A stretch of 64,000 nt of DNA from Anaerolineae bacterium (GTDB lineage Bacteria; Chloroflexota; Anaerolineae; DRVO01). This document shows positions 5,728-54,353 of this stretch, piece after piece. Both the position numbers and the translations under genes were made by a program. The DNA is taken from NCBI GenBank assembly GCA_013178015.1, contig JABLXR010000005.1, positions 38,532 through 102,531 on the forward strand, in the 5' to 3' direction. The notes beneath the pieces are model-generated. The model made no database searches, was not told the origin of the DNA, and was given only the letters and a program-made list of their open reading frames with translations. How positions within the stretch are numbered: the stretch's first letter is position 1; the number at the start of each line of letters is the position of its first letter.

Positions 5728-6453
5728 CTAGGTGCCTCGCCCCGCCCTTGGGAGAGGGCGCTCCTCCAGAGCGACGGCCAGCGCTGCCTCCGCGTGGAGG
5801 CGGGTAGTGTCGAATACTGGCAGAGCCAGGTCGTCCTGCCCGATGAGAAGGGGGATCTCGGTGCACCCGAGGATGACACCTTGAGCCCCCTGCGCCTCCA
5901 GTTCGGCGATGGCTTGCAGGTAGGTGGCTTTGGACTGGGGCCGGACCTCCCCGTTGGTCAGCTCCTCGTAGATGATGCGGCTCACCTGCTCTTGCTGGTC
6001 GGCAGAGGGCACCACCGCCGTCAGACCGTAGGCCGATAGCCGGTCACGGTAGAAGGGATGCTGCATGGTGGTGGTAGTCCCCAGTAGCCCCACCCGCGTG
6101 AGCCCTCTGGCCAGGATCGCCTCCGCGGTCACGTCAATGATGTGGAGCAGCGGTATGGGGGAGCGGCGCTGGGCCGACTCGAAGGCGATGTGCATGGTGT
6201 TGGTGGCGATGAGGGCGAAGTCGGCTCCGGCAGCGTGGAGCCGGCGAGCGGCGTCGCCCAGGGCGGCCGCGGCCTCCTCCCAGGCCTGATCGGCGGTCCA
6301 GCGGCGGCAGTCGGCGAAGGGCACGCTGTAGATGACGACGGGCGGGTAGTTCACATCGCCGTGATGAGCGCGGTACGTCCAGTGGATGTGCTCGTAGTAG
6401 ACCAGAGTGCTCTCGGGGCTCATGCCCCCTATGATGCCGATGGTCTTGCGCAT
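5728..6453 (-). CDS. Asp/Glu/hydantoin racemase-family protein (aspartate racemase-like)
   Basis: Motifs IGIIGGMSPESTL and VILGCTEIPLL are typical of the Asp/Glu racemase family. Confidence 0.8.
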   Translation of the reverse strand: MRKTIGIIGGMSPESTLVYYEHIHWTYRAHHGDVNYPPVVIYSVPFADCRRWTADQAWEEAAAALGDAARRLHAAGADFALIATNTMHIAFESAQRRSPIPLLHIIDVTAEAILARGLTRVGLLGTTTTMQHPFYRDRLSAYGLTAVVPSADQQEQVSRIIYEELTNGEVRPQSKATYLQAIAELEAQGAQGVILGCTEIPLLIGQDDLALPVFDTTRLHAEAALAVALEERPLPRAGRGT

Positions 6454-6461
6454 GGCTCCCC

Positions 6462-7091
6462 CTATCGCTTCAGCCGGCTGTAGTAGGAGTGGCTGGTGTA
6501 GAGCACCGCCGCCGGGTTGTGCCCCGTGACCCGATCTTTGGCCACCAGGACGGTGACGGGCGCCTCCGAGTGGCGGAAGAAGAGGCTATCGTGTCCCACG
6601 CACAATCCCACCGCCACGTTCAGGTGCGTCCCTGCCCGGTTCAGCAGCGTCGCCTGGCTGATGGGGTTGCAGAGCGCCTCAAACTGGCCCGGGCGTATCT
6701 TCTCCTCGTCCGTCAGGCCAATCTCCTCTTTGGGAATGGAGCCTACCTTGCAGCACACGGAGGCGACCTCGAAGCCGTTAGCTTCGAGGATCTCCTGCAG
6801 CATCGAGGCCTCCCGTATCAACCCCACGCAGGAGGCAATGCCCAGGCGCGTGGCCCCGATGCGGCGGGCGAAGCTCATCACCTCCTCCACCCGGGGCTCC
6901 AGAGGGTATCGGTCGGCTTCGGTGCGGGCGGCGGCCAGAGCGAACTCCTGCGTCGCCCGGTCGTCGTAGGCTCGCCTGGCGTCGGCCAAGATATCGGCAC
7001 TGTGGCTCATGGGGCAGAAGGCTGGGTATGGCTTGGTTCCCGGTGCAGCCCTGCAGGCCTGTACCCGGCAGGTGGCGCATCTAAGCTCCAT
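6462..7091 (-). CDS. DUF1847-like Cys-rich metal-binding protein
   Basis: N-terminal Cys cluster (CATCRVQACR...FCPMS) and C-terminal CCKVG/CVGHD motifs. The family assignment is from recollection. Confidence 0.5.
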   Translation of the reverse strand: MELRCATCRVQACRAAPGTKPYPAFCPMSHSADILADARRAYDDRATQEFALAAARTEADRYPLEPRVEEVMSFARRIGATRLGIASCVGLIREASMLQEILEANGFEVASVCCKVGSIPKEEIGLTDEEKIRPGQFEALCNPISQATLLNRAGTHLNVAVGLCVGHDSLFFRHSEAPVTVLVAKDRVTGHNPAAVLYTSHSYYSRLKR

Positions 7092-7166
7092 GATGACACA
7101 CTCCTCATGTGACGGTACGGTGACGGGCGGGCTCCGGGCGCCGCTCCTGTGGCCCAGTCGCTCGTT

Positions 7167-8438
7167 CTAGCGGCCGGCGCCATCATGTCGTAGGTCGCGG
7201 TGCAGGGTCTCAGGCACGGTCGCCAGAAGGGGCAGACGCACCGTCAGGTCAATGACGATGGGCAACAGGAATACCCACGCGGGATTCCAGTGCCGGTAGA
7301 TCAGGCCGCCGATGACGGGCGCCGGAATGGTAACCACGCCGCCCAGTACCCCCAGCACCCCGTGCCATCGGCCGGCCATCTCAGCCGGTACCAACTCCAG
7401 ACCCATGGCACCTGCGGCCCCCGACGAGATGCTGTAGAAGGTGTACAGCGCGGCTGCGCCTATGAGCATGTAGGCATCGTGCGCCAGGACCAGCAAGATG
7501 AAGGCGCCGTACCATAGCGGCGTGAGGGCATAGATAAGGCGCTTCCGGCCCAACCTATCGGCCAACCGTCCCAGGGGAATGCCGAAGGCCAGCCGGGTCA
7601 GGATCATGGCAGTCGTCATGGCCGCCAGGATCACGGCATTGGCCCCCTTGAACTCGTAGGCGTAGAGCTGCATGAAGGGAGTGGTGATCGCCAGCGGGAT
7701 GGACGTCAGCATGGCCACAGCGGTCCATCTCTTGAGCGGGCTACCGGTATCGAGGAGTTGCCGGAAGTCCGCCGCCACGTCCCTCAGCTTGATGCCGTGC
7801 AGCCCTCGGATGTGAGACGGCTCCTGCAGCCAGCGGAAGACCAGGTGGAAGACCATGAGGTAGCCTATCACCCGGATCCAGTACAGGGGCCGGATGCCCT
7901 CTGTCGTCAGCCCCCCGGAGTGGGCGACCAGGGCCGCCGCGATCATGGGCGCCACCAGGCTACTCAGACTGGCCAGGGTCACACAGGTGTTCTGGGCCGT
8001 GACCCTATCCCTGTTGGCGACAGAATCTCGGCAGATGACGCTGCATCCTGCGCTCAGGAATTGGGAGGCGGGGACCATGGCGATGCTTGCCAGGACGATC
8101 AGGTGCCAGGTGGGAGCCAACCCGTATAGGAGGGTGCCCACGGCCGTCAGCAGGACGCCCGACGCGTACAGCTTCCTGAGGCTGTACCGGTCCACCAACC
8201 AGCCGACAGGTAGCGAGAGCATCGCCCCGAAGGCAGAGGCTATGCTGCTGATGCTGCCAAGTTGCACCGGATTAGCCCCCAGCCCGGTGACGTAGATCGA
8301 GTCGTACTGGGCCGTCAGGTTCATGAGGAAGCTGCTCATGGCCTGACGACCCACCGCCACCCGGTAGTTGAGCTTCTGTCGGGCCATGAATCCCTTGGCG
8401 TTGGTCACCGCATCAGCTAGCGCCTTCATCTCTCCCAC
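7167..8438 (-). CDS. MFS transporter
   Basis: About 12 predicted TM helices and an MFS-like loop motif (GRLADRLGRKR). Confidence 0.85.
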   Translation of the reverse strand: MGEMKALADAVTNAKGFMARQKLNYRVAVGRQAMSSFLMNLTAQYDSIYVTGLGANPVQLGSISSIASAFGAMLSLPVGWLVDRYSLRKLYASGVLLTAVGTLLYGLAPTWHLIVLASIAMVPASQFLSAGCSVICRDSVANRDRVTAQNTCVTLASLSSLVAPMIAAALVAHSGGLTTEGIRPLYWIRVIGYLMVFHLVFRWLQEPSHIRGLHGIKLRDVAADFRQLLDTGSPLKRWTAVAMLTSIPLAITTPFMQLYAYEFKGANAVILAAMTTAMILTRLAFGIPLGRLADRLGRKRLIYALTPLWYGAFILLVLAHDAYMLIGAAALYTFYSISSGAAGAMGLELVPAEMAGRWHGVLGVLGGVVTIPAPVIGGLIYRHWNPAWVFLLPIVIDLTVRLPLLATVPETLHRDLRHDGAGR

Positions 8439-8522
8439 TCACAGCCGGATAGGCCGGCTACTGAACCCATCAGGCCAAAGGCTGCCTGAACGGCTACACT
8501 CCCTGAGCGGCGGAGTGTAGGC

Positions 8523-10166
8523 CTATGGCCAGGGCCTGAGGTAGAGCTCACGCACGTAGCGGTCCAGGAAATCAGCCTCCTCCGAGAGCTTGACATGGCC
8601 GATGCGGGGGGCGATCCGCTCAGCATCGGCTCTCCTCTCCCGAGAAAGCAGCATCTGTCTGGCCCCGGTCAGAGCGCCGTTGCCGATCTTGACCAGTTTC
8701 TCCTTCCTGGCCGGAAGAACGCCGATGGCCATGGCACTATCCAGGCTCACGTAGTTGCCGAACCCCCCCGCCAGATAGATCCTGTCAACCCCTTCCAGGT
8801 CGACCCCGTACTTGCGCATCAGGGTCTGCTGGTTGAGGGCGGAGCCCGCCTTGGCCAGCCTCAGCTCGTTTATGTCCTTCTGAGTGATGCCGATCCTGCG
8901 GCCGTTCTGGGAGATGACAAACTCATTAGCTGCCCTGTAGGCCTGGGCCAGCCTGCCGCTCCGATCGATAATTCCGTTCTTCAGCATCTCGGCCAGCAGG
9001 TCTATGAGACCTGACCCGCAGATGCCCACTGCGGGCTTGTCCCCAATGGTCTCATACCGGACCGCCCCATTCAGGATGCTGACGTTCTTGATGGCTCCTT
9101 CTATCGCGCCCGTGCCGCAGCTCACGGTAGCGCCCTCAAACGCGCCCCCGGCAGCGTTTGAGGCGGCCAGGATGCGCTCCCGGCTCCCAATGGCCACTTC
9201 GCCGTTGGTGCCGATATCTACCACCATGACGGGACGCTCCACTCGGTGTAGGCCGCTCGCCAGAATGACGGCTAGGCAGTCGGCCCCCACCTGGCCGGCC
9301 ACGAGAGGAGCGCCGTAGACGTTGGCTCTGGGGTTGATCTCCAAGCCGACTGCATCGGCATCCAGGTTGATGGGCGAAATGTCTTGAGGCTCATACGGGC
9401 TGGTACCCAGTGAGTGGACGCTCAGGCCGAAAAAGAGATTGCGCATGGTGGGGTTGCCCACTACCACGGCCTCGTAGATGTGATCCACTGTGCTCCGGCC
9501 CTCTCTTCCCTCGAAGGTGCGCAGAGCCGAGTTGACCGCCTCCACTACCACGCGCTGGAGCCGTCGGAGGCCATCCTCGTGAGTGTCGGCATAGCCGATC
9601 CGTGAGATGACATCGTCTCCGTAAGCCGCCTGGGGGTTCCTGCAGGCCAGGGTTGCCACTACCTCGCCGCTCTCCAAGTCCACGATCTGGGCTACCAGGG
9701 TAGTGGTCCCCACATCCACAGCTAGGCCGAGAAGCTCGCCTTCGTATGCTCCCAGGGAATGGATCCGCTCCTCGCGCAAGACGACCCGGTCCCCCTCCCT
9801 CGACACGTGGGGATCCAGGCGGATCATCCCCTGGTCCGTGCTCTCCGTGAGGATGGTGTACTCACCGGCCGCCCAGATGTAGACGACGACATCCCTAGCG
9901 CTTGATATGATCCTCGCCTGGCAGGCCAGCCGCTCGTCTCGCGCCAGGGGGAATCTGCGCTCGGCCTCTGTCCTCTCTGCCAGACTCTCGCCTCCGCTCT
10001 CCACCCTGACCACACACTTGCCGCACTGCCCTCGGCCGCCACAAGCGCTGGCTACCTGAATCCCCAGCCGCCAGGCGTGATCCCATAACGTCGCCCCTTC
10101 CTCAATCGAGACGCCGTTCCTGCCCCGGGCGTACTGGGGGAATATCACTCTGTGCTCGTGTGCCAT
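8523..10166 (-). CDS. 2Fe-2S ferredoxin / ASKHA (DUF4445) protein, RACo-like corrinoid reductive activase
   Basis: Plant-type ferredoxin Cys motif (CGGRGQCGKCVV...C) followed by a DUF4445 ATPase-like domain. Start at MAHEH, with GAGGAG 6 nt upstream. Confidence 0.75.
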   Translation of the reverse strand: MAHEHRVIFPQYARGRNGVSIEEGATLWDHAWRLGIQVASACGGRGQCGKCVVRVESGGESLAERTEAERRFPLARDERLACQARIISSARDVVVYIWAAGEYTILTESTDQGMIRLDPHVSREGDRVVLREERIHSLGAYEGELLGLAVDVGTTTLVAQIVDLESGEVVATLACRNPQAAYGDDVISRIGYADTHEDGLRRLQRVVVEAVNSALRTFEGREGRSTVDHIYEAVVVGNPTMRNLFFGLSVHSLGTSPYEPQDISPINLDADAVGLEINPRANVYGAPLVAGQVGADCLAVILASGLHRVERPVMVVDIGTNGEVAIGSRERILAASNAAGGAFEGATVSCGTGAIEGAIKNVSILNGAVRYETIGDKPAVGICGSGLIDLLAEMLKNGIIDRSGRLAQAYRAANEFVISQNGRRIGITQKDINELRLAKAGSALNQQTLMRKYGVDLEGVDRIYLAGGFGNYVSLDSAMAIGVLPARKEKLVKIGNGALTGARQMLLSRERRADAERIAPRIGHVKLSEEADFLDRYVRELYLRPWP

Positions 10167-10458
10167 GCGTGCTCCTCTTCTGTATGCGGTTCTGATCATG
10201 GCAGCCGCCGGTGATCCGCACGGATATCACCATGGGCCATCGGTGTGGCCTCAGTCTCCCCCGCGACTCCCGGCGACCGGCCCGACCGGGCGCCAGCCTG
10301 GCCGTTCCGACCGGAGTCCACGTGGCCGGCCCAATGCTGCCGGGAGGCTGTGAGATGCTGTCGCCGAGGCTTGCAGCCCTTCACGAGGGGCGTTCCGTCG
10401 CACCCACCCCGCACGTGCCCTCACGGGAGGTGCCCTCGTGCCGGGGGGACCACGGGCA

Positions 10459-11133
10459 TCATGGTGCACTCTCCTTGACCAGAGCCATGCCAATGAATCC
10501 TCCCCAAGGTATGCGAGCATGCTCGCATGGCGGCCACCGGGGGAAGAGCGTGGTGTACCACACGATGCTGACCTGCGCGCCGGAGGCTGACCGCAGGAGT
10601 CGCTCCAACTCGGCAACGCTGTAGAAGTGGGCCTGGTTGTAGACGGTGGGGCGGAGTAACCCCTCCAGCCGCCTCCGCAAGCCGAGCCAGCTCCAGCGGT
10701 TGAGCACCCCCAGCAGCAAGCCACGCCCCGCCACGCGCAGGGCCTCCCCGAGCGCCTCTTGGGGGTATTGCAGAAACTCGAGCGTGGTAATGAGCGCCAC
10801 TAGATCGAAGGCGTCAGTGGGAAAGGGAAGCTGGACAGCGCTGCCCTGCACCAGTGGAACACCATCGAGCAGTCGAGCTTGAGCCAGCATGGCCTCCGAC
10901 AGGTCGAGCCCCACGACCGCCAGCCCCCGCTCGCTCAACCAGCGAGTGAAGTGGCCCGTGCCACAGCCCACCTCGAGCACACTGCGTGCGTCGGGGAACG
11001 CCCTCAACAGCCGCACCAGGACGGCCTTCTCCAGGGCATCCACCCTCTGCCCCTCCGGGGTCTCGTACCAGGCCTCGTAGTGAGCTGCAGTCCACCTGTC
11101 GAAGGGATTCTCGTCGACCGCCATCCCAGTCAT
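10459..11133 (-). CDS. Class I SAM-dependent methyltransferase
   Basis: Motif I VLEVGCGTGHFTRWL and post-I VVGLDLSEAM. It overlaps the upstream gene stop by 4 nt. Confidence 0.8.
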   Translation of the reverse strand: MTGMAVDENPFDRWTAAHYEAWYETPEGQRVDALEKAVLVRLLRAFPDARSVLEVGCGTGHFTRWLSERGLAVVGLDLSEAMLAQARLLDGVPLVQGSAVQLPFPTDAFDLVALITTLEFLQYPQEALGEALRVAGRGLLLGVLNRWSWLGLRRRLEGLLRPTVYNQAHFYSVAELERLLRSASGAQVSIVWYTTLFPRWPPCEHARIPWGGFIGMALVKESAP

Positions 11134-11387
11134 GGCTCCTCGGGCACCTCACAGGCGTTGGACAAAGTCACCGTCATCACGGTGTCTCCGTGCTGCATAG
11201 CCTTGACGAAGGCGCCTTCGAGGCCACGAAAGACAAGGTGTCCTTCTCCCCACACCAAGGTGCTCATCTGGCCGACGCGCACGTTCAAACCCTGCTGACG
11301 CAAGACGTTCACCGCCTCCCGAATGGCAGGCGCGATAGTATCCTGACGCAAGGGATAGATGCTCAGCTGCGCTGTCACGATCGCCAT
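11130..11387 (-). CDS. MTH1187/YkoF-family (DUF77) small ligand-binding protein
   Basis: 85 aa. The pattern matches the MTH1187 family (SIYPLRQDT...VRVGQMSTLVWGEGHLVF). Confidence 0.65.
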   Translation of the reverse strand: MAIVTAQLSIYPLRQDTIAPAIREAVNVLRQQGLNVRVGQMSTLVWGEGHLVFRGLEGAFVKAMQHGDTVMTVTLSNACEVPEEP

Positions 11388-11414
11388 CTCGCTGCATCCT
11401 CTGCGCTCATCGCT

Positions 11415-12092
11415 TCACCGATGGCGGGGGGAATGCACGGAGACGGCATCCGCCATCAAGCCTTCCAGACGGTCGAGCGTGATGGGGTGGAACTCAACCT
11501 CCAGGCCGGTCCAGTCGAAGAGCTCTAGGACCTCCTCGGCGTGCTCGGCAATGTACTGCTTGGAGAAGCCCAGTCCGTCCAGGACCACTATCTTGTCGTA
11601 GAACCCGGGGAAGTTGGCGTTGGCATCGGCACGATCCCAGCCGAAGTACCCCTGGTAGACCTTCTTCCAGTTCCTGAGCCAGCCGGGCGTGAACCACAAG
11701 ATCTTGTCTTGCCTGCCCCCGCTGATCTGCTGCCGATCTTCGAAGCCAGCCAGTATGTCGTAACCATAGTCCCCTTGTACCCTCACCAGCTCTGGCCCGG
11801 CCGCCTGCAGAATCGTATCCACCCGCTTGAGCGGATCATCGGCGTCAACGTAGCACTTCTTGCCGTAGACGACGATGATGTCACGGTCGCGACATGACTC
11901 TCGCGCTTGCGCCAGCCTCTGGAGCAGATGCTCCTCGAGCCTGTGCGGGAGGGCGTGCAGGCCGGGTGGCGTGAAGAGGACTCGTCGGGCATTGAGGAAG
12001 CCCGTCTGCCTCAGGTAGCGGATCTCCGGATATAGCATCCCACACGATATGAGACAACGACCTTCGAATATCGGCTTGGCTGTATCAGTCAT
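11415..12092 (-). CDS. DUF1638-like protein
   Basis: 225-aa cytosolic protein. I assign it to DUF1638 from recollection only; that family is seen next to corrinoid methyltransferase genes. Confidence 0.4.
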   Translation of the reverse strand: MTDTAKPIFEGRCLISCGMLYPEIRYLRQTGFLNARRVLFTPPGLHALPHRLEEHLLQRLAQARESCRDRDIIVVYGKKCYVDADDPLKRVDTILQAAGPELVRVQGDYGYDILAGFEDRQQISGGRQDKILWFTPGWLRNWKKVYQGYFGWDRADANANFPGFYDKIVVLDGLGFSKQYIAEHAEEVLELFDWTGLEVEFHPITLDRLEGLMADAVSVHSPRHR

Positions 12093-12354: not shown

Positions 12355-13207
12355 TCACTGCAGCGCGATGCTCCAGCCCACGCCGGATAGAATACAGTCC
12401 TCCCCGTACTCGGCAGCGAAGAGCGCCCGCGCCGTGTCGCCCGAGCAGTGGCTGGGCGCCACCTTCTCCACTCCCAGACGGCGAAAAGCCGAGACAATGC
12501 CCTCGATCTGGCCGGCGCTCTGGCTCCCCAGGTGGAACCCCCCCAGCACCAGATGCACGGCCACGTCTTCGCCGATTCGCTTGGCCTGCTCCACCATTCT
12601 GACGATGCCCGGGTGGGCGCAGCCGGTGATAACCACCAGCCCCTCTGCAGACTCCAGGACCAGCGCCTGTTCGCGGATGTCCTCTCCCACCTCGCCCGTG
12701 CTCCAGACACCAGGGATTATCGCCCTCGGCCCGTCCACCTCCACCAGTTGGGCGTCGGCATCCCGCACCTGCTCTTTGAAGCCGACGGGGAACGAGCGAG
12801 GGACGTACACGGTCACACCCCGCGCCCGATTGAGCAGGCCGGCCAGCCCGCCGGTGTGATCGCTGTGAATGTGGGAGAGAACGACGGCCTCGATCCGCTC
12901 GGGATCGAGGCCGAGCAGAGCCATGTTGCTCAGCAGCGCGTCGGAGTCTCCGCCAGTGTCGAAGAGGAGGAGATGGCCACCGTAGTCAATCAGGCAGGAG
13001 AAGCCCCAGGCCGCCTTCAGGCTGGGGTCGTCAACATAGTTGTCGTACACGATGGTGATGGTCACCGCAGCCGGTTCCACTTGCGTGGGCTGCGGAGAAG
13101 GTGCGGGAGCGACGGCCAGCGCACCTCCATGAGCGGTTGCGGTGGCGAGCCGGCATCCGGTCAGCGCCAGGGCAGCCAGAGGCAGGAGAATCAGGAACGC
13201 TTTCACC
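12355..13207 (-). CDS. MBL-fold metallo-hydrolase lipoprotein
   Basis: HxHxDH motif (LSHIHSDHTGG). GTG start followed by a lipobox (LAALALTGC). The N-terminal 68 codons of the listed ORF are probably not translated. Confidence 0.7.
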
Positions 13208-13632
13208 CCATCCCTCCAGGACACGCCTGCGCATGTACTTGGCTCCGCACCCTGTCGCGCGGCGCTCTGGCCGGCGCACTCCTCTACCACCACCAGCCTG
13301 AGGACGGCCGGGCGGAGCCGCTGTTGCGGCATGCCTGGTGCAATCCTACCATAGTACTGGGCAGTCGTACAGTCTTTTGGTACTAGTGCGCTTACGTTTC
13401 CTGGTCCCATCTCCCGACCGGGCAGCGGCGGCCGAGGTCAGGACGGAAGGCGGCACCATCGCGAATGTGCCCAGGCTGAGGCGGGCTCTCTTGGGGAGGC
13501 TCTCTCAGTGTGGCAGGCGGCGCAACGCCGAGCCCCTGGGCGGGCCTTCCTCGCGATGGACTCAGAGCATCTCTCTCAGCCACTGGTCTGGAGCACTTGC
13601 CGCCCTCAGGGGCTGGCGCTGGCCACCGACAT

Positions 13633-19227: not shown

Positions 19228-21399
19228 GTGCTGAAGACTCCTTCGGGCGCCATCGAGCTCAGTTGGCGGGCGCTGCAGCGTGAGGTCGGCCTCAGGGCGG
19301 GTATCGTCCTAGCGGCGGTCGGATACCTGGTGTGGTTCCAGCAGCTCAGCAGCGGCTCGGAGGACCCGAGCCTCTTGATCCTGGTCTTCGTCGTCACCTC
19401 GGTGTGTTTGTGGCTGGGCACGAGCAGTCCCACGGCGGTCCGCCGCTACGTGGTCGGGCTTCAGGTAGTGCTTCTGTGGGCGGCGCTGGTGCTTGCCTAT
19501 CTAGCTCTCGGCTGTGCCGATGCCCTGCTGTTCCTCTCCGCGCCAGCCTTGCTGGCAGCCCTGGGGGTGAACCCGGCGGCGGGAGTCGGCGTCGCTGCCT
19601 CTGGTGCGGCCGTGATCGCTCTACGTTGGCCGGAGGTGGATCGGGTCGCAGTCCAGGCGCTGTTCCTGCTCATGATGGTGGCCGGGCTGGGTGCGCCCAT
19701 GGCGGGACGCCTGCGGGCTCATCTCCAGGAGGCCTGGGCGTTCACCCAGCATGCAGCGGACCTGTCTCGAGAGCTGCGGATGCGGCAGGAGGAGGTGAAC
19801 AAGCTAAACAAAGCACTCACCACCGCAAACGGCCTGCTGAAGCGAAGCCTGCGCGAGTTGACCCTTGCCCAGCAGGAGGCACTGGAGGCCCGAAGGCTGA
19901 AGGAGCAGTTCGCCACCACCGTGAGCCACGAGTTGCGTACACCGCTGAACACGATCCTGGGGTTTCTGGAGGTAATGCAGCGCTATCCGGAAGTGTACGG
20001 CGACGTGACCTGGACGACGGAGTTGCGCCGGGACATCAGCGAGATCCAGGTAAGCGCCCGCTACCTCTCGGGGCTGGTGGACGACATCCTGGACCTCGCC
20101 CGCGTTCAGGCTCTGCACATCCCCGTGAGGCGCGAGGATGTGGACATCGCTCAGGTGATAGCCGAGGCGGCAGACCTGGCGAGGAGGCTGCTCGCCGGCA
20201 ACAAGGACGTTGAGTTGAGGTTGGAGCTGCCACAGGGCCTGCCCCAACTCAACGTGGACCGGATGAGGATCCAGCAGGTCATTCTGAACTTGCTAGCCAA
20301 CGCCTGCCGTTTCACCGAGAGGGGTCACATTCAAGTTGAGGCTGAGTTCACCGGCGAGGAGGTAGTGGTCTCCGTGTCCGACACCGGGGCGGGCATCCCG
20401 GCTCACGAGATCCCCCGCATCTTCGAGGAGTTCCACCGCGCCAGCGCTGCATCGGCAAGTGGGCTGGGCAGCGCGGGCAGTGGCCTGGGGCTGGCCATCG
20501 CCAAGAGATTCGTCCAGATGCACGGGGGGCGGATCTGGGTCGAGAGCCAGCCCGGGGAGGGCAGCACCTTTAGCTTCAGCCTGCCGTTGACGGCCAAGCA
20601 GGTGTCACCCTTGAGCCTGCCGCGTCCTCAGGGCACTTCACGGCCCGCTGGAAGGCCCTCGCTCGTCCTAGTGGGTGACGAGCACGGGGCGTCCTTCCTC
20701 TCTCGCCGGCTGGAGGGGTACGAACTCCTGGTGGCGGCCGATGTGCGGGAGGCCCGAAGCCTGGTCTATGACCGTCACCCCGATGCCGTCTTGCTCGATA
20801 TCCCGCTGGAGAGCGGGGAGAAGGGCTTCGGCCTGGCGCCGCGCATACTGCCTGAGCCGGTGCCGGTGATTAGCTGCTCCCTGCCCGGGAGCCGCAGGCA
20901 CGTCGGCAGTGACCTCTTCGCCGAGTGGCTGATGAAGCCGATTAATAGCGACCGACTGGCCGAGGCTCTCAGGAACGGCCCGAGGGCCAGTCGGGTCATG
21001 GTTGTGGACGACGACGCGTCCTTCGTCCGTCTCATCGAGAGGTACCTGGAGGTGGGGTCCATTGGGGCTCCGGAGATCGCCTGTGCCCGGAGCGGGGAGG
21101 AGGCGCTGGCTCTGGCGCGGAAGTTCAAGCCGGACGTGGTGCTTCTCGACATGGCCCTGCCCGGGATAGACGGCTGGGAGGTGGCTCGGTCACTGCGGGA
21201 AGAGGAGCTGGACCCTCAGCCTAGATTGGTGGCGGTCACGGCTCTGGACCCCACCCAAGGGCTGGCCGGGAGCGCGCGCACCTTCTCGGTGACCAAGTCC
21301 GTGGGGCTGTCGGAGGGAGAGACGGTTGGGCTCATCCAGGCATGCCTGGCTCAGCTCAGGCCAGCCTACTCCTGCGACTCACCTGTCTCAGAGCCTTGA
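19228..21399 (+). CDS. Hybrid sensor histidine kinase (membrane sensor, HisKA, HATPase_c, two receiver-like domains)
   Basis: H-box HELRTPLNTILGF, G-boxes (GTGAGIP, GLGLAI), and a C-terminal receiver with DMALPGIDG. Confidence 0.85.
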   Translation: MLKTPSGAIELSWRALQREVGLRAGIVLAAVGYLVWFQQLSSGSEDPSLLILVFVVTSVCLWLGTSSPTAVRRYVVGLQVVLLWAALVLAYLALGCADALLFLSAPALLAALGVNPAAGVGVAASGAAVIALRWPEVDRVAVQALFLLMMVAGLGAPMAGRLRAHLQEAWAFTQHAADLSRELRMRQEEVNKLNKALTTANGLLKRSLRELTLAQQEALEARRLKEQFATTVSHELRTPLNTILGFLEVMQRYPEVYGDVTWTTELRRDISEIQVSARYLSGLVDDILDLARVQALHIPVRREDVDIAQVIAEAADLARRLLAGNKDVELRLELPQGLPQLNVDRMRIQQVILNLLANACRFTERGHIQVEAEFTGEEVVVSVSDTGAGIPAHEIPRIFEEFHRASAASASGLGSAGSGLGLAIAKRFVQMHGGRIWVESQPGEGSTFSFSLPLTAKQVSPLSLPRPQGTSRPAGRPSLVLVGDEHGASFLSRRLEGYELLVAADVREARSLVYDRHPDAVLLDIPLESGEKGFGLAPRILPEPVPVISCSLPGSRRHVGSDLFAEWLMKPINSDRLAEALRNGPRASRVMVVDDDASFVRLIERYLEVGSIGAPEIACARSGEEALALARKFKPDVVLLDMALPGIDGWEVARSLREEELDPQPRLVAVTALDPTQGLAGSARTFSVTKSVGLSEGETVGLIQACLAQLRPAYSCDSPVSEP

Positions 21400-22549
21400 G
21401 TAGGTCCAGGCGGGAGACAGGCTTGGTAAGGTAGGCGGCAGCTCCCAGCAAGCGGCCCAGTTCCGTGTCCTTGAGGACGGAGCAGATCACTACGGGCACC
21501 TCCCGCGTCCGTGGGTCTGCCTGCAGGGCTCTGAGGACAGTCCAGCCGTCGGCATCGGACATCATGATGTCGAGCACCACAGCGTCAATGTCACGGGTGG
21601 CTACCCATTCGCACGCCAGGCGCGGGTGTGGTACCCGGACCGGGTCCCACTCGCTGGTAGCGAGGTAACGCTCGTAGAGAGCCGCCGCGCCGGGGTTGTC
21701 CTCCACGATCAGGGCCCGCCGCCGCTTGTCCAGGGGCAGCTCGAGAGAGAGGTTCTGCCTGCCGGTCTCGTCGGTCCAGAGGCGATAGTCCAGCTTCTGC
21801 TGCTGCGCGATCAGCAGAGCCGCCTGGACCAGGTCGTGTCGGGCAAGGCGTCGCGAGCCCTCGAGGGGCATCGTAATCGTCACCAGACGAGGCGTTCGCG
21901 CCACCGTGATCGTCAACTCGCGTTCGGCTGTCCCCTGAACGACGGCGCTCAGGATCAAGGTGAGTACCTCGCGCAGGACCGCGGGGGTGACGGCCACCGC
22001 CAGTTCCGTCTCGGGCTTACAGACCCGTAGGTGCACCCCTTGCTTTTGGGCCAGGGGGGCGACGGTGGCCAGTGCGGCCTCGATCAGGCCCGCCACCTGG
22101 ACAGTTTCGGGCTTGTGGGCCAGGTGCCGGAGCTCCTCCTCGAAGGCCCCGGCGCGATTCTCGTCAGGTTCCGGGGCCTGGGCTTCCGAACAGTCTGACT
22201 CAATCAGCCGGGCCAGCTGTTCCTCGGCCCATCCCAGGTCGCGATAGACCTGTCGCGGGCTGACCGCCAGTTGCCGGGCGACTTCGTCCACTCGAAGGCC
22301 GGAGACGTAGCGGAGCCTCAGGCAGTCATAGGCGCGGGAGGCGGTGGCGGAGGGAGCGGAGCGGGAGGCGGGTCGCAGCATCTCGATGGCATCCAACAGC
22401 TTGCCGCGGAGCAGCTGGGCTCTTTCCACCATGTCTTCGGTCGACTGGGCCACGGGCAACAGGCTGGCCAGCCGGCAGTTGGCGAGTTCTGCTGGAACGT
22501 AGAGGGAAAGCAGGGCCTGATGCACGTCCTCGGCAGTCACTTGTGCCAT
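21356..22549 (-). CDS. Response regulator with N-terminal sigma-70 region-4-like HTH and C-terminal receiver
   Basis: HTH (VDEVARQLAVSPRQVYRDL) and a receiver domain (ALIVEDNP...VVLDIMMSDADGW...KP). It is convergent with the kinase and overlaps it by 44 nt. Confidence 0.7.
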   Translation of the reverse strand: MAQVTAEDVHQALLSLYVPAELANCRLASLLPVAQSTEDMVERAQLLRGKLLDAIEMLRPASRSAPSATASRAYDCLRLRYVSGLRVDEVARQLAVSPRQVYRDLGWAEEQLARLIESDCSEAQAPEPDENRAGAFEEELRHLAHKPETVQVAGLIEAALATVAPLAQKQGVHLRVCKPETELAVAVTPAVLREVLTLILSAVVQGTAERELTITVARTPRLVTITMPLEGSRRLARHDLVQAALLIAQQQKLDYRLWTDETGRQNLSLELPLDKRRRALIVEDNPGAAALYERYLATSEWDPVRVPHPRLACEWVATRDIDAVVLDIMMSDADGWTVLRALQADPRTREVPVVICSVLKDTELGRLLGAAAYLTKPVSRLDLLKALRQVSRRSRLA

Positions 22550-23016
22550 CGTCTGGTACCAGTGGGGAAGAAGTCGCAGGTCACAACAGGAATTGTCGCA
22601 GTTCTGTCAGTGTTGTGTCAACGGCTATGGGCACTCGGGCGCGCGTTGGCCGGGTATAATCGGCAGTAGCGCTTCGTGCGAGGCTGCCGGCACCAGCATC
22701 CTCACAGACTCTGCGGAGGCTCAGCAGTGGAGGGTGGCAAGGACAGCTGAGCCGTCGGGTGAGGCCCGATGTCCCCGCTGCGATGGACAAGGCGGCTGGC
22801 TCGCCGATGCAGTCAGCGAGACGCCTGGGAGGAGCCGGTTGGGGGTCAGGAAGTGCAGGGAGCCAGGGGAATCCTCCCCATAGCGTGGCTACGTGAAAGG
22901 AGGTGTCACGACAAGTTCGCGAGTATGCCAATAGGCAGGGACGAGAGCGTGCTGGTGACCGTATAGTCACGGCGTTTCGTCAGGTGCTGCGTGTTCATGG
23001 GAGGGAGAGGAAGCAG

Positions 23017-24348
23017 ATGAACGGCGACAAGCGATACACACGGCGCGGTTTGCTCCAGGCGGGCACGTTCGCGGCTGCAGGGGCCATCCTGGCCTCCTGT
23101 GCCCCGGCAACGCTGGCGCCCGTCGCTGAGCAAGAGGAGGCTGGTGCTACCACTGCTGCGCCAGTCGCATCTGGTGCACTCGACATCTGGACGTTCCCGA
23201 TGACGGAGGACGATCAGGGTATCATCTGGGATCCGCTGATGGAGAGATTCCATGAGGAGTACCCCGATATCAAGACCACCATCGAGATCCTGCCGTGGGG
23301 CGGCCGTCGCGAGAAGATGCTGGCGGCCTACGCTGCTGGCCAGGCACCTGACATAGCCGCCACCGACATTGACACGATCCAGCAGTTCGGGCGGAGCGAC
23401 TGCATGGAGCCGCTGGATGACATCCTGGGCCCGGAGGTATGGTCCGACATCCCGGAGACGCTGTACGCGGGGCTATCCTGGCAGGGCAAGCGGATCATGT
23501 ACCCGAAAACGTTCTACTGCGATGGCTATGTGGCGAACAAGGCTTTGGTTGCCGAGGTAGGATGGGATCCGGAGACGCCTCCTGCCACGTGGGACGACTT
23601 CCGGGAGCTAGGTGCGCTGGCGGCGGAGAAGGGCTACTTCCTCACGGCCGGGACTACGGTCTCCATCTGCTATACCTTCACTGGCTGGGTGTGGCAGGCA
23701 GGGGGACGGGAGCTGACCGACGATGGCAACACCAGCCTCATTGACGGCGAAGCGGGCGTGGCTGCCTGTGCCTTCGAGGCCGAGATGTTCGTCAATGGGT
23801 GGGTGCCCATTGAGGGAGCAGTGGGCTCGGAGGAGGAGGTGACCAGCACCAGCGACTACTTCCTGCAGGGGCGGCAGGTGCTGAGCTCGGCCATGACCGC
23901 GGGGAGCTACGTCATGGCCATGCGCCAGGCACCCGAGATCGAGATGATACTGTGCCCAGCCCTGAAGAATGTGCGACAGGTGAAACCTGGCTGGGCCGAC
24001 TGCTGGTCCATCTTCAGGAACAGCGACAAGTCCGCGGCGGTGTGGCTATCCTGGATGGCCAGGCCGGAGAATGCCGGCTTCTACTGCTCCGCCACTGGCT
24101 ACACCCCGCCGGGAGAGAAGGCAAAGGAGTATTGGCAGACAGAGCCAGAACAGATAGCGTTCATGGAGGCGAACTCACCATACACGGAGATGAACCAGGA
24201 CAACTTCGCCTGGTACCAACTACGAAAGCTGACGTATGCTCCTTACCGACAGGCGGCTGCGCTGGGCAAGATGACCCCGCAGGAAGCAATGACGGCGGCG
24301 GCCGCAGAGCTCAACGCCAAGATCCAAGAGGAACTGGCCGCGGTGTAG
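23017..24348 (+). CDS. ABC transporter substrate-binding protein (carbohydrate family 1), Tat-lipoprotein type
   Basis: Start MNGDKRYTRRGLLQAG...LASC (twin-Arg plus lipobox). SBP_bac_1-like. Confidence 0.85.
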   Translation: MNGDKRYTRRGLLQAGTFAAAGAILASCAPATLAPVAEQEEAGATTAAPVASGALDIWTFPMTEDDQGIIWDPLMERFHEEYPDIKTTIEILPWGGRREKMLAAYAAGQAPDIAATDIDTIQQFGRSDCMEPLDDILGPEVWSDIPETLYAGLSWQGKRIMYPKTFYCDGYVANKALVAEVGWDPETPPATWDDFRELGALAAEKGYFLTAGTTVSICYTFTGWVWQAGGRELTDDGNTSLIDGEAGVAACAFEAEMFVNGWVPIEGAVGSEEEVTSTSDYFLQGRQVLSSAMTAGSYVMAMRQAPEIEMILCPALKNVRQVKPGWADCWSIFRNSDKSAAVWLSWMARPENAGFYCSATGYTPPGEKAKEYWQTEPEQIAFMEANSPYTEMNQDNFAWYQLRKLTYAPYRQAAALGKMTPQEAMTAAAAELNAKIQEELAAV

Positions 24349-24370
24349 CCAGACGCGGGCGATGAGGCAC

Positions 24371-24413
24371 GGCACTCCCGAGCTGCTGCCGATGTGGCGG
24401 TGCCGGGAGTGCC
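24371..24413 (+). terminator. Hairpin after the SBP gene (GGCACTCCCG...CGGGAGTGCC)
   Basis: 10-bp stem and 23-nt loop, 22 nt after the stop, with no U-tract. It may act as an attenuator or stabiliser. Confidence 0.3.
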
Positions 24414-24501
24414 TGGTCACCTCCCAAACGCGGTACACTGCGCAGCTGGGGCGCATTGTGCACAGAGCGAACTGCGCTGACGTCCGGAGGCGTGGCTCTC
24501 C

Positions 24502-25638
24502 ATGACCAGCAAGGAGAGAGTGCTGGCGGCGCTGAGCTTCCAGAAGACAGATCGGGTTCCCATCTTCGATGAGTTCTCTCCGGAGTGGACCAGACGCTGG
24601 CGCCGCCAGAAGAATCTGGGTCCTGATTCCGATCCGCGGGAGTACTACGAGATCGACATGGAGGTCTTGACTCCCGACGAGACCCCGTTCCCATCGGCAA
24701 AGGGGGTGGTGGGCCAGGCTGGTGAAGCTTTGCTGGAGAGGACTGGGTGGGGGGATGTCCGGCGACGCCGTGGGACGGCCCAGTTCGAGGACAAGTGGAC
24801 GTACCCGACCCAGGCCCTCGAGGTCATCGAGGTGGCCATTCCGAGGAAGAGGGATCTGGACCGACTTGAGTTCGAGAGCGCGTCACTAGATTCGCGGTTT
24901 CCGCCTCGGGATGAGGTGGCAAGGAGGAAGGCCAGGCGGTGCGTGTTCGGCAAGACTGGCGGTCCCTACCTTCGTAGCTCGTACCTGCGGGGCGCAGTGC
25001 AGTGGTTGATGGACTTGGCAGAAGATCCAGTGTTCGCCTGCCAGCTCGCCATGAGAGTCGCGGACCACCTGATCGCCATAGGGCTGGAGACGATGCGCCG
25101 GTACGATCTCTATGACACTGGCATGTGGTTGGATGATGACATCGGCAGCAACCATGGTCCGGTGTTCTCGCCAGCGACCTTCGAGCAGGTGTTCCTGCCC
25201 TGTTACCGAAAGATGATAGGCGCCTACCGCCAAGCCGGGGCCCGCATCGTGATCTTCCACTCCGATGGGAACATCGAGAGCGTGCTCGATATGCTGGTGG
25301 ATGCCGGCGTGGATGCCATCAACCCTCTGGAGTACAAGGCGGGTATGGACGCGGTACGGTTGCGGGAGAAGTACGGGCGAAGGCTCGCTTTCATCGGTGG
25401 CCTAGACAACGCTCATACCTTACCGGCCGGCTCACGGTCGGAGATCGAAGCCCACGTTCTGCGGCTGTTGAGCATAGCGGAGGATGGGGGACTGGTGGCA
25501 GGGTCTCACTCGATTGGAGCCGATGTCCCGGTGGAGAACTACGAGCTGGTCTGGCAGCTAATCAGAGCCACCCAAGACAGCCGAACCAGCAGACCCGGAT
25601 CCTCGCAGCTGCTGGGCTGGCCCCCTGGGAGGCAGTGA
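24502..25638 (+). CDS. URO-D family protein (uroporphyrinogen decarboxylase / MtaA-like methyltransferase fold)
   Basis: URO-D family N-terminal motif (ERVLAALSFQKTDRVPIF) and C-terminal GGLDNAHTLPAG...GSHSIGADVPVENY. It is embedded in the sugar ABC operon. Confidence 0.75.
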   Translation: MTSKERVLAALSFQKTDRVPIFDEFSPEWTRRWRRQKNLGPDSDPREYYEIDMEVLTPDETPFPSAKGVVGQAGEALLERTGWGDVRRRRGTAQFEDKWTYPTQALEVIEVAIPRKRDLDRLEFESASLDSRFPPRDEVARRKARRCVFGKTGGPYLRSSYLRGAVQWLMDLAEDPVFACQLAMRVADHLIAIGLETMRRYDLYDTGMWLDDDIGSNHGPVFSPATFEQVFLPCYRKMIGAYRQAGARIVIFHSDGNIESVLDMLVDAGVDAINPLEYKAGMDAVRLREKYGRRLAFIGGLDNAHTLPAGSRSEIEAHVLRLLSIAEDGGLVAGSHSIGADVPVENYELVWQLIRATQDSRTSRPGSSQLLGWPPGRQ

Positions 25639-26573
25639 CAGTGATGCGACAAGTACAGCTGATGGATCAAGCACCAGGGGCAACGCGGACGAGATTCTGG
25701 CGCAAGGCGAAGGATCAAGCAGGCTGGTTCCTGTTCATCGCGCCTAACGTTCTGGCCTTCCTCCTCTTCAGTCTCTCCTGCTACGTGTTCGTCGTCTACT
25801 TGAGCTTCCAGCGTTGGGACCTGATTGGCGTAAGGAAGTTCATTGGACTGGACAACTTTGCCCGGCTGGCCACCGACCCAATCCTCGCCAAGTCCTTCGC
25901 TAACATCGCTAAGTACGTGTTGATGTTCGTGCTGCCGGTGTCTGCTGTTTCGCTGGGGCTCGCCTTGCTGGCAAACCGGCGAATCCGGGGCATGTACTTC
26001 TTCAGGAGCGCCTACTTTCTGCCCTGGGTCACCTCCACCGCCGTGATCGCCGTGATCTGGAACTTCGCTCTTATCCCGAGGGGGGAAGGGCCTCTGAACT
26101 ACCTCTTGGGACTGATAGGGATCCCGCCGCAGCTCTGGCTGGTGGACACCAACTTGGCCCTACCGTCGCTGGCAGGGATCAACATATGGACGAGCGCCGG
26201 ATACTACATGGTTCTGTGGTTGGCCGGCCTCCAGAGCATTCCCGAGACTCTGTACGACGCGGCGAAGATGGACGGGGCCGATAGCTGGGCGCTGTTCCGC
26301 CACGTGACGCTCCCGATGCTGAGCACCACCACCGTGTTCATCTTGACCATCACCATCATCGGTGCCTTCCAGATGTTCGGCCTGGTCTACACGATGACGG
26401 GCGGCGGCCCTATGTATGCCACCATCAGCCCCGTGTACTACATATGGCAGACAGCGTTCGTCCGCTACCACATGGGCTATGCTTCAGCCGTCTCTCTGGC
26501 GCTGTTCGCGGTCATCATGGTTGCCACTGTGTTGCAGCGCAAGATCACCGGTTGGGGCGAGGAGATGTACTGA
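25635..26573 (+). CDS. ABC transporter permease (MalF/UgpA-like)
   Basis: 6 TM helices and an EAA-like loop (DAAKMDGADSWALFRHVTLPML). Confidence 0.85.
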   Translation: MTVMRQVQLMDQAPGATRTRFWRKAKDQAGWFLFIAPNVLAFLLFSLSCYVFVVYLSFQRWDLIGVRKFIGLDNFARLATDPILAKSFANIAKYVLMFVLPVSAVSLGLALLANRRIRGMYFFRSAYFLPWVTSTAVIAVIWNFALIPRGEGPLNYLLGLIGIPPQLWLVDTNLALPSLAGINIWTSAGYYMVLWLAGLQSIPETLYDAAKMDGADSWALFRHVTLPMLSTTTVFILTITIIGAFQMFGLVYTMTGGGPMYATISPVYYIWQTAFVRYHMGYASAVSLALFAVIMVATVLQRKITGWGEEMY

Positions 26574-26584
26574 GGAGGCAAGCG

Positions 26585-27484
26585 GTGGTCGAGTGGGCTG
26601 AGCGCGTCTCGGGGCCAGAGGTTTCCCGCGTCGGGTCGTCGCCAGCAGCTGCAGCGAGATGGATAAGGCCGCTTCTGAGCAACTTGCTGACCTACCTGGT
26701 GCTCCTAAGCCTTGCCGCGATCACGGCTGGGCCGTTCGCGTACATGGTTTCGATGTCACTCCGGCCTGACTTCAGCTTCATGTACTTCCCCATCGGGCTC
26801 ATTCCGGAGAGGATCAGCCTGGAGAACTACGCTGTGCTGTTCCAGCGCAGCGGTATTCTCCGCTGGCTGCTGAATAGCTTCTTCGTTTCGACGAGCGTAG
26901 TGCTGACGAACCTGGCAACTTCCTCTCTGGGTGGTTACGCGTTCGCTCGAGGGCGCTTCTGGCGCCGCGACGCCATCTTCCTCATGCTAGTCGCGAGCCT
27001 CATGGTCCCATCCACTGTCACTACAGTTCCACTGTTCATCATCGTGTCCAGGCTCGGCTGGGCGAACACGTACATGGCTCTGATCCTGCCGTCGTCCGCG
27101 AACGTATTCGGCACCTTCCTCATCCGCCAGCAGATGATGACCATCCCCAGGGACTATGACGACGCCGCACACATAGACGGTGCCGGCCGTTTCGACATCT
27201 ATCTGCAGGTCCTCCTGCCACTAACCAAGCCGGCGCTGGCGACGATCGCCACGCTCAGCTTCCTGGGCGCTTGGAACGATTTCCTCTGGCCCCTCGTTGC
27301 CACCAGTTCCGGCAGCATGCGGACTCTGACGGTGGGGTTGGCCACCATGGTCATGCGGATCGGTGGCGCCGGTTTCCAGCTTGCCGGAGCTACAGTGGCT
27401 TTCTTGCCAACGTTCATCTTCTTTCTGTTAATGCAGCGCTACGTGGTGCAGGGCATCGCCATCTCCGGCGTAACAGGGACGTGA
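26585..27484 (+). CDS. ABC transporter permease (MalG/UgpE-like)
   Basis: GTG start with GGAGG 8 nt upstream. EAA-like loop DDAAHIDGAGRFDIYLQVLLPL. Confidence 0.85.
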   Translation: MVEWAERVSGPEVSRVGSSPAAAARWIRPLLSNLLTYLVLLSLAAITAGPFAYMVSMSLRPDFSFMYFPIGLIPERISLENYAVLFQRSGILRWLLNSFFVSTSVVLTNLATSSLGGYAFARGRFWRRDAIFLMLVASLMVPSTVTTVPLFIIVSRLGWANTYMALILPSSANVFGTFLIRQQMMTIPRDYDDAAHIDGAGRFDIYLQVLLPLTKPALATIATLSFLGAWNDFLWPLVATSSGSMRTLTVGLATMVMRIGGAGFQLAGATVAFLPTFIFFLLMQRYVVQGIAISGVTGT

Positions 27485-27681
27485 GCAGCGGTGCCAGGTT
27501 CCACTTCCGGGATCGCAGCGCCTCCGGCAGGGCTGACCGAGCTGCTTTCTGTCCACCCTCACAGTAGCCGTGGTGGGGGAACGCAAGGCGGGATACTGTG
27601 GCAGATGCGTCGCAACTGATCGAGCGCCTTCAGCAACCGGAATCGGTACGTCAGCAGGCCCGGTGTCGAGGTACCGGTGGC

Positions 27682-53131: not shown

Positions 53132-53140
53132 GCCTGCCTC

Positions 53141-54196: not shown

Positions 54197-54353
54197 CCCT
54201 CCCGGATTGGCTACCTCTGACTCGGCCACCAATCTTGTCTCTTTCCTCCCCGGGCTCGACGCTCTCCGGTCTCCCACAAGGCGGTGCCACACTCCTCTTA
54301 GGGTCGAACTCCGCGCTCCGGGCATGCCACTGTTCATGATCGTGCCTCCTTGC

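Follow-up and report, generated by a model that had tools for sequence, protein, structure and literature searches.

Organization of the gene cluster

Within a 64,000-nucleotide (nt) stretch of the genome of an Anaerolineae bacterium (contig JABLXR010000005.1, positions 38,532 to 102,531; this whole stretch is called the window hereafter), a run of genes on the minus strand encodes a short protein of the RACo/RamA type together with a DUF1638 protein, a class I S-adenosylmethionine (SAM)-dependent methyltransferase, a small YkoF/MTH1187-like protein, a major facilitator superfamily (MFS) transporter and a Cys-rich DUF1847 protein. It represents one version of a mosaic array that recurs in anaerobic Chloroflexota and occurs in Armatimonadota too, whose core consists of the MFS transporter, DUF1638, the YkoF-like protein, the methyltransferase and a COG1237-type hydrolase of the metallo-beta-lactamase (MBL) fold, and into which a short, linker-less clade of RACo proteins has been inserted repeatedly, as an occasional insert.

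The cluster runs from the DUF1847 gene (6462-7091; Pfam PF08901, 207 bits, profile positions 1-157 of 157) through the genes of the MFS transporter (7167-8438; MFS_1, 108 bits), the short RACo/RamA-type protein (8523-10199; Fer2 35, Raco_middle PF17651 166 and RACo_C_ter PF14574 241 bits), the methyltransferase (10459-11133; Methyltransf_11, 75 bits) and the YkoF/MTH1187-like protein of 85 amino acids (aa) (11130-11387; YkoF 34.4 bits against a cut-off of 21, Thiamine_BP 27.0 against 24.9) to the DUF1638 gene (11415-12092; PF07796, 67.5 bits, gathering cut-off 27). All six lie on the minus strand, with the coordinates of the first-pass annotation unchanged and a GC content at third codon positions (GC3) of 0.74-0.85; the gaps between them, counted from the DUF1847 end to the DUF1638 end, are 76, 85, 260, -4 and 28 nt, the negative value being an overlap of the YkoF-like stop with the methyltransferase start. 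The Pfam profiles support the RACo, DUF1638 and DUF1847 assignments of that annotation (67.5-241 bits for the main domains), and its naming of the MFS, methyltransferase and MTH1187-family genes, as well as their shared orientation, was confirmed by Pfam and by the coordinates.

A strong third-position GC bias characterizes the run of co-oriented minus-strand open reading frames (ORFs) between 5.7 and 13.4 kb, and the transcription unit probably extends upstream to the COG1237-type MBL gene (12355-13332, minus strand; Lactamase_B, 59 bits), the first gene of the array, and downstream to an Asp/Glu racemase gene (5728-6453, minus strand; Asp_Glu_race 164 bits, TIGR00035 215 bits) placed 8 nt after DUF1847. 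The MBL ORF is open to 13410, and the start used here was adopted from the gene call of an independent assembly (L026), on which the gene order is identical. Among structures in the PDB, the MBL protein matched 7dck (175 bits) and also TM1679, the YkoF-like protein matched YkoF 1s7h (32 bits), and the best match of the methyltransferase was TT1324 (75 bits). Two NCBIfam candidates for the methyltransferase, DVU_1556 (61 bits against a cut-off of 155) and CpaM (49.5 against 180), were rejected. The promoter and terminator scan returned signals only at the level expected by chance, and no Rfam family, whether cobalamin, TPP, NiCo or any other, was detected in the window with either the gathering threshold or E<=1.

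The short RACo clade and its lack of corrinoid neighbours

The window RACo is encoded by a 558-aa ORF, whose alternative start at 10166 gives the recorded 547-aa product. It aligns with the crystallised RACo (PDB 3zyy) at 304 bits across residues 150-552, and its 2Fe-2S motif, ACGGRGQCGKC, retains the Cys ligands of an intact CGGRGxCGKC pattern and is conserved throughout the clade. The RACo_linker domain (PF17650), located between the ferredoxin and middle domains, gave no match in this protein at E<=0.01; members of the clade have 527-558 aa, compared with 615-681 aa for most corrinoid-linked RACos, and the window protein scored below the curated equivalog cut-offs of AcsV (NF040756, 340 against 800 bits) and RamA (TIGR04270, 169 against 500). 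A neighbour-joining tree grouped it in one clade with the proteins of the related loci L001, L002, L003, L004 and L083, and the identity to its close relatives in L001-L004 was 51-75%. Additional relatives comprise more than 45 protein clusters at 62-76% identity and more than 60 at 50-55%, the latter including metagenome-assembled genomes named Armatimonadota, Poribacteria, Cloacimonas and Aerophobetes.

A scan of a genome collection with the window RACo yielded 25 loci, 21 of them distant RACo loci, and in every locus the ORFs of all six frames were compared with the four domains of E. coli MetH. The statistics for the clade considered six loci, namely L001-L004 plus L130 and L131, these last two picked by sequence length only, while L051 and L083 were left out for having been found through the DUF1638 anchor. 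In the distant loci, which served as a positive control, a MetH-type protein with B12-cap and B12-binding domains occurred within 5 kb of RACo in 14 of 21 cases (30-41% identity), and corrinoid proteins at these loci often came with pterin-binding or homocysteine-binding methyltransferase domains. The same probes found no MetH-type corrinoid, pterin or homocysteine domain in the window or in L001-L004, L051, L083, L130 and L131, so that the comparison stands at 0/6 clade loci against 14/21 distant loci (Fisher p=0.006), whereas array genes were present in 3/6 RACo-anchored clade loci and in 0/21 distant ones (Fisher p=0.007). MetH-type probes would overlook corrinoid proteins of the CoFeSP type, and neither a CoFeSP-family match nor, the two radical SAM proteins of the window aside, a B12-binding match was found in the gene tables and Pfam scans of the window, L001, L003, L026, L130 and L131. 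The missing corrinoid client is a conserved trait of the short RACo clade, not a local oddity.

The first-pass annotation had viewed the cluster as a set of accessories either of a conventional corrinoid methyltransferase system encoded elsewhere in the genome or of two B12-radical SAM enzymes of the window, an explanation that we now consider improbable. Its observation that the 64-kb window holds no corrinoid protein or MT1 was borne out, since Pfam scans of 39 further ORFs (most of the GC3-supported ORFs outside the cluster) detected no B12-binding_2/corrinoid protein, MttB, MtaB or MetH-like gene, and the MetH probes detected no corrinoid, pterin or homocysteine domain in any six-frame ORF. 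Likewise, the association of RACo and DUF1638 with corrinoid enzymes, on which this explanation draws, agrees with the split MetH of Phaeobacter inhibens, of which both are known accessories (PMC5764234). Against it, however, the related Anaerolineae loci L015 (9045-12452) and L021 (9054-12446) hold a different, long RACo paralogue between a homocysteine-methyltransferase domain and a B12-cap/B12-binding protein, an arrangement that constitutes a split-MetH operon with its own embedded RACo. Two RACos also coexist in L131 (3225-12470), where a long canonical protein with the linker domain and a short one without it are encoded 5 kb apart on the same strand, the latter followed directly by an MTHFR gene and then by a formate/nitrite transporter, and L001 has a second, divergent RACo copy (40% identity, too short to classify), followed by MFS and SelD genes.

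The candidate clients inside the window did not fare better. The genes at 24502 and 60246, previously placed in the MtaA/URO-D family, are URO-D-like but reach only 42 and 59 bits, far under the MtaA/CmuA cut-offs of 235-400, and were therefore rejected as MT2 enzymes of the MtaA/CmuA family; both are located in sugar-utilisation loci. The B12-binding domain is confined in the window to the two radical SAM proteins, which had been suggested as alternative cobalamin clients. Their genes are situated 17-25 kb from the cluster, within a glycosyltransferase/LPG-synthase cluster, and have no homologue in any of about 130 related loci, which means that they are not co-conserved with the array. These paralogous genes (29183-30643 and 33618-35114) match each other at about 430 bits and are HpnJ/BchE-like, with scores under the cut-offs; a PD-(D/E)XK gene, an LPG_synthase_TM gene and a GT2 glycosyltransferase gene lie between them, and the pair with its enclosed genes looks like a lipid-modification cluster.

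The recurrent array in related genomes

The array was described from annotated contexts and from 80 metagenome loci anchored on the DUF1638 subfamily of the window, using tblastn, ORF clustering and Pfam/NCBIfam checks of representatives. Its typical same-strand order is (PRK04286 MBL-like), MFS, (SelD), CooC-type P-loop ATPase, CooT, DUF1638, YkoF-like, SAM methyltransferase and COG1237 MBL, beyond which MinD-Fer4, Nitro_FeMo-Co, radical SAM, PEMT-like and USP genes often follow. Within 5 kb of DUF1638, the commonest neighbour among 85 loci was the YkoF-like gene (39 loci), followed by MFS (36; homologues with 48-77% identity), the CooC-type ATPase (35), the methyltransferase (32), CooT (29) and MBL (28), counts that are lower bounds because many of the metagenome contigs are short. 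In the 23 loci where DUF1638 is flanked by 2 kb or more in both directions, each component was present in about half and RACo in one; the COG1237 MBL homologue was found on the same strand within 3 kb in 10 of these 23, and directly upstream of DUF1638 there was a CooC-type ATPase in 12 and CooT in 11 (CooT Pfam, 70 bits).

RACo is found within the array in the window, L026, L083, L051, L130 and L003. The order in L083 is MFS, CooC, CooT, DUF1638, methyltransferase, an unnamed gene and RACo, with YkoF and MBL further on, and in L130 it is MFS, DUF1638, YkoF, methyltransferase, an unnamed gene, a URO-D-like gene that overlaps the following short RACo by 4 nt, RACo and MBL. The Armatimonadota chromosome L003 shows methyltransferase, OsmC, DUF1638, methyltransferase, a MinD/CooC-type P-loop ATPase, RACo and MBL, plus a CooT-family ORF recognized by ORF clustering only. 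The MBL homologue thus adjoins RACo in L003 and L130, while in L001 YkoF and MBL lie 5-6 kb from it. This sharing of the array by members of the short clade in L003, L083, L051, L130 and L001 is counted in favour of the function proposed below.

Two further observations concern the array genes. The protein encoded between the methyltransferase and RACo in L083 (5287-6591) and L130 (8063-9037) is conserved, has no Pfam match and is absent from the window, its sole match being a weak one of 46 bits to a sulfoquinovose isomerase model. In addition, the SelD ORFs of the arrays (TIGR00476, 362 bits; L070:326-1315, L001:2237-3223 and others) begin at about model position 16, past the Cys/Sec motif, and a TGA-encoded selenocysteine may shorten these ORF calls.

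The mosaic character of the arrays, each component being present in about half of the well-flanked loci, and the mutually unrelated contexts of DUF1847 described below would be expected if unrelated genes had been juxtaposed by chance in a rearrangement-prone region. Nevertheless, the same-strand order DUF1638, YkoF, methyltransferase recurs in dozens of independent metagenome contigs, the combination of RACo, DUF1638, methyltransferase and MBL recurs across phyla, as seen in the Armatimonadota locus L003, and a natural fusion of DUF1638 with a methyltransferase exists, all of which makes chance a highly improbable explanation.

The closest relatives of the array, L123-L126, in which DUF1847 is 84% identical, have the order MBL, YkoF, methyltransferase, MFS, DUF1847 and racemase, and lack DUF1638. 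Just upstream of this array they retain a pseudogene remnant of the RACo N-terminus (L123:3954-4091, also in L124-L126; residues 7-52, 56% identity), which is interrupted by an in-frame stop, and the absence of DUF1638 together with this RACo stub suggests that DUF1638 and RACo were lost together. The persistence in L123 of the YkoF-methyltransferase pair with MFS and MBL is also what would be expected of an operon for small-molecule methylation and transport, in which these four proteins would handle a heterocycle or a metal(loid), for example a selenium compound, with RACo, DUF1638 and DUF1847 as loosely associated redox helpers or unrelated neighbours. In the same direction, YkoF and the methyltransferase are the tightest pair, with a 4-nt overlap in the window and one of a few nt in several relatives, SelD (362 bits) is present in several arrays, and the YkoF family binds thiamine or hydroxymethylpyrimidine, going by the PDB naming of 1s7h. 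On the other hand, no substrate can be named for such an operon, the methyltransferase is above the cut-off of no curated family, and DUF1638 is not a mere neighbour because most loci keep it tied to the YkoF-methyltransferase pair and protein P0367 is its fusion with a methyltransferase; this interpretation is therefore regarded as rather unlikely.

Conservation of the DUF1638 protein

The DUF1638 protein of the window belongs to a highly conserved Anaerolineae subfamily, of which more than 120 clusters share 70-77% identity with it, and an exhaustive HMMER search of 1.84 billion representatives returned only 219 DUF1638 relatives at E<=0.001. The alignment of 31 full-length diverse members revealed the invariant residues C17, E23, G77, C80 and W138, and H46 conserved in at least 90%, all of which are present in the window protein. 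An AlphaFold2 model (mean confidence, pLDDT, 88.8) has two alpha/beta subdomains, and the conserved residues come directly after strands beta1 to beta4 in the N-terminal one, where, judging from the topology of the model, they would occupy the usual ligand edge of such folds. The model had no PDB fold match at E<0.02, and a profile search of PDB sequences was empty. A class II chelatase was rejected, as SirB and CbiK head the fold search but with a TM-score of about 0.29 and E=0.03, and so was a disguised B12-binding domain, given that the model has no significant PDB match.

Natural fusions join DUF1638 to a class I SAM methyltransferase (P0367, 396 aa) and to DUF6951 (P0470, 302 aa). Moreover, genetic evidence ties the family to corrinoid chemistry. 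In Phaeobacter inhibens, a three-part MetH that lacks the reactivation domain requires both a DUF1638 protein and a RamA-like protein (Fer2+DUF4445), and across alpha-proteobacteria these families are found together; the role of DUF1638 in B12-dependent methionine synthesis was derived from transposon fitness data, and the authors offered no function for it (PMC5764234). In Ruegeria, RamA-like and DUF1638 proteins are induced together with the corrinoid protein MtgC (PMC12478193).

Proposed function of the module

We propose, with a probability of roughly 0.4, that the cluster encodes a trans-acting, ATP-driven module for the reductive (re)methylation or maintenance of the cofactor of a corrinoid client encoded elsewhere. 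In this scheme, the 2Fe-2S cluster of RACo would accept an electron, and ATP binding and hydrolysis by its ASKHA domain would drive that electron onto a low-potential Co(II) corrinoid. DUF1638, whose alpha/beta fold carries a conserved Cys/His/Cys site, would be the partner of RACo and would present or load the cofactor, while methylation by the SAM methyltransferase may trap the cofactor once it is reduced, in a manner similar to the reductive methylation of MetH. With the client enzyme presumably encoded elsewhere, the module would act in trans, in cofactor maintenance rather than as a substrate-specific methyltransferase operon. We infer every catalytic step; what was observed directly is how the domains are arranged, how far they are conserved and which genes accompany them.

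A role of RACo on a corrinoid is favoured because of its domain composition, its 2Fe-2S motif and its similarity to the crystallised RACo, and the pairing of RACo with DUF1638 in that role because of the requirement in Phaeobacter, the co-occurrence of both families and their induction in Ruegeria. The MTHFR gene after the short RACo of L131 and the URO-D-like gene before that of L130 hint at one-carbon (C1) or corrinoid chemistry, and the methyltransferase-DUF1638 fusion of P0367 is also counted in support of the module, as are the contrast between clade and distant RACo loci in array genes and MetH-type neighbours and the apparent joint loss of DUF1638 and RACo in L123-L126.

Several observations weigh against this proposal. 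No corrinoid-binding protein was found across about 95 loci of the array or clade, and no riboswitch, cobalamin included, was detected in the window or in eight related loci. Only about 5 of the 85 DUF1638 loci have RACo next to DUF1638, whose tightest neighbours are the YkoF-like gene and the nickel-chaperone-like CooC-type and CooT genes, not RACo. The methyltransferase of P0367 is of another subfamily than that of the window (23% identity), and resembles one in the DUF1847-containing array L036 (113 bits). The DUF1638 subfamily of the window has lost the Cys of the 'NCIExLL' motif, conserved in at least 90% of the 31 diverse members, and at this position the window protein (residues 108-111, GDYG) and protein P0361 read G-D/E-Y-G; the subfamily has gained the subfamily-invariant C13 and C67, and C13, being sited at the opposite end of strand beta1, has probably not just taken the place of the lost Cys as a ligand. 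Finally, where the Carboxydothermus hydrogenoformans RACo (loop C-S398-A-G-P-A-F-E-G) has Ser398, a Co(II) ligand in its complex with CoFeSP (PMC4934906), the window protein has an aligned Ala (loop SNAAGGAFEG, which is also the reading of the clade), although Ser398 was rejected as diagnostic of corrinoid specificity because corrinoid-linked Gaiellales homologues also lack the Ser.

Some of these features would be accommodated if the short RACo clade had been re-purposed for electron transfer to a non-corrinoid, low-potential metal centre (Ni or Fe-S) handled by DUF1638, the CooC-type ATPase and CooT, the whole functioning as a metallocofactor assembly or repair array. About half of the well-flanked loci have CooC-type ATPase and CooT genes immediately upstream of DUF1638, and by ORF clustering these genes also stand between DUF1638 and RACo in L003, the arrays merge with MinD-Fer4/Nitro_FeMo-Co/radical SAM/CGGC clusters, the Cys/His/Cys site of DUF1638 is of a metal-binding type, and the clade lacks the linker domain, the Ser398 ligand and any corrinoid-protein neighbour. 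Nonetheless, all characterised RACo/RamA homologues act on corrinoids, the genetic phenotype of DUF1638 is tied to a B12-dependent MetH (PMC5764234), the MTHFR and URO-D-like neighbours in L131 and L130 suggest C1/corrinoid chemistry, and the window itself contains neither CooC nor CooT, so that a non-corrinoid target, the main alternative to our proposal, seems doubtful to us. It is less probable still that DUF1638 represents a new kind of cofactor carrier, which would hold a corrinoid or another redox-active metal at its Cys/His/Cys site and form, with the methyltransferase and the short RACo, a self-contained, SAM-fed and ATP-primed methyl-metal system; if this were true, no Rossmann-type B12-binding protein would be needed, and MFS and MBL would handle the substrate or the product.

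DUF1847, the racemase and other genes of the window

The first-pass annotation had listed DUF1847 among the usual companions of corrinoid systems, which was not supported when the association was sampled with an HMM of the subfamily of the window, found in 0/21 distant RACo loci and 0/85 DUF1638 loci. The protein is highly conserved, and its contexts are mutually unrelated: an ORP-like metal-cluster array (L036), an AFOR/URO-D locus (L039) and a sugar ABC locus (L127). Its AlphaFold2 model (pLDDT 74) gave weak fold matches to an Asp racemase C-domain (1iu9, E=1e-3) and to a Dph2 Fe-S domain (E=0.01), and a disguised B12-binding domain was rejected, with no such match among the 50 fold matches listed. 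DUF1847 and the Asp/Glu racemase form a pair separated by 8 nt in the window (5728-7091) and in L123-L126 (L123:8001-9367), and are probably co-transcribed; the racemase match of the model beside a neighbouring racemase gene may be a coincidence between Rossmann-like folds. Altogether, DUF1847 is probably an independent neighbour rather than a member of the module, and the racemase too is taken as a neighbour.

Elsewhere in the window, positions 19228-29118 are syntenic with L127:1-10128, sharing a hybrid histidine kinase, a response regulator, a sugar-binding protein, two permeases and a ceramidase-like gene; in the window the gene of the sugar-binding protein is followed by a URO-D-like one, whereas L127 has instead a nitroreductase, an unnamed gene and DUF1847 before the ceramidase-like gene. 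A dnaA gene (50238-51596; Bac_DnaA, 233 bits) indicates that the region may be near the replication origin, and the GC skew has no clear switch. Three co-oriented genes at 52526-54767 encode a DUF2089 zinc-ribbon/helix-turn-helix protein and two pentapeptide-repeat proteins with SHOCT-like domains.

Comparison with known systems

To our knowledge, RACo/RamA activases and the reactivation domain of MetH are the only known rescues of oxidised corrinoid enzymes, and all characterised RACo/RamA members are tied to a known corrinoid client. The RACo of Carboxydothermus hydrogenoformans (PDB 3zyy, 4c1n) and the RamA of methanogens are ATP-dependent reductive activators of corrinoid proteins, with which the window protein shares the 2Fe-2S ferredoxin domain (C-x5-C-x2-C), the RACo middle domain and the ASKHA ATPase domain. 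Unlike them, it is about 70-90 residues shorter and has no RACo_linker match, and the genes of its clade were not found beside CoFeSP, MtaC-like or MetH-type B12 proteins in the loci examined. A literature search retrieved no paper describing the short RACo clade or the array, and none on DUF1847; as far as we could find, the clade and the array are a previously undescribed variant of RACo/RamA-type activase systems.

The closest parallel is offered by the RamA-like protein PGA1_c15200 and the DUF1638 protein PGA1_c13340 of Phaeobacter inhibens, which bring together the same two Pfam families (Price et al. 2018, PMC5764234). In Phaeobacter, the B12 protein is encoded at another locus than the RamA-like gene but in the operon of DUF1638, while here there is no B12 protein nearby in any relative; the window adds YkoF-like, SAM methyltransferase, MBL and MFS partners, and its DUF1638 subfamily is without a Cys that is nearly invariant in the family. 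The reactivation (AdoMet-binding) domain of MetH, working with flavodoxin or MTRR, carries out the reductive methylation of cob(II)alamin, and conceptually the same chemistry would be available to the cluster, in which an electron donor is combined with a SAM-dependent methyltransferase that may act on a corrinoid. The cluster has no homology to this domain (PF02965), however, and its energy would come from ATP through the ASKHA domain, not only from the coupling to methylation. A looser analogy can be drawn with human MMADHC, a B12 chaperone reported to load cobalamin onto methionine synthase via Co-S coordination (bioRxiv 10.1101/2023.07.25.550549); as a non-enzymatic MetH partner with a thiolate cobalt ligand it may be set beside DUF1638, with its invariant Cys and MetH-linked phenotype, without any sequence or fold relationship, DUF1638 having no significant PDB match.

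A different comparison is provided by the nickel-insertion accessories CooC and CooT and by the MinD-Fer4/Nitro_FeMo-Co genes, which in related genomes are the genes most often added beside DUF1847 and the DUF1638 subfamily, unlike in the window, where they are absent. No CODH gene was listed in the annotation of those related loci whose gene tables were examined, and we take the MinD-Fer4/Nitro_FeMo-Co clusters of these relatives to resemble the 'orange protein'-type clusters of anaerobes. The Cys/His/Cys site, the methyltransferase fusion and the loss together with RACo in a close relative offer handles on the function of DUF1638. Taken together, a short clade that is widespread (more than 100 protein clusters in several phyla) and has no neighbouring corrinoid client would mean one of two things: that anaerobes have a general system of B12 maintenance that acts in trans, or that the ATP-coupled uphill electron transfer performed by RACo/RamA-type activases extends to a new class of substrates.

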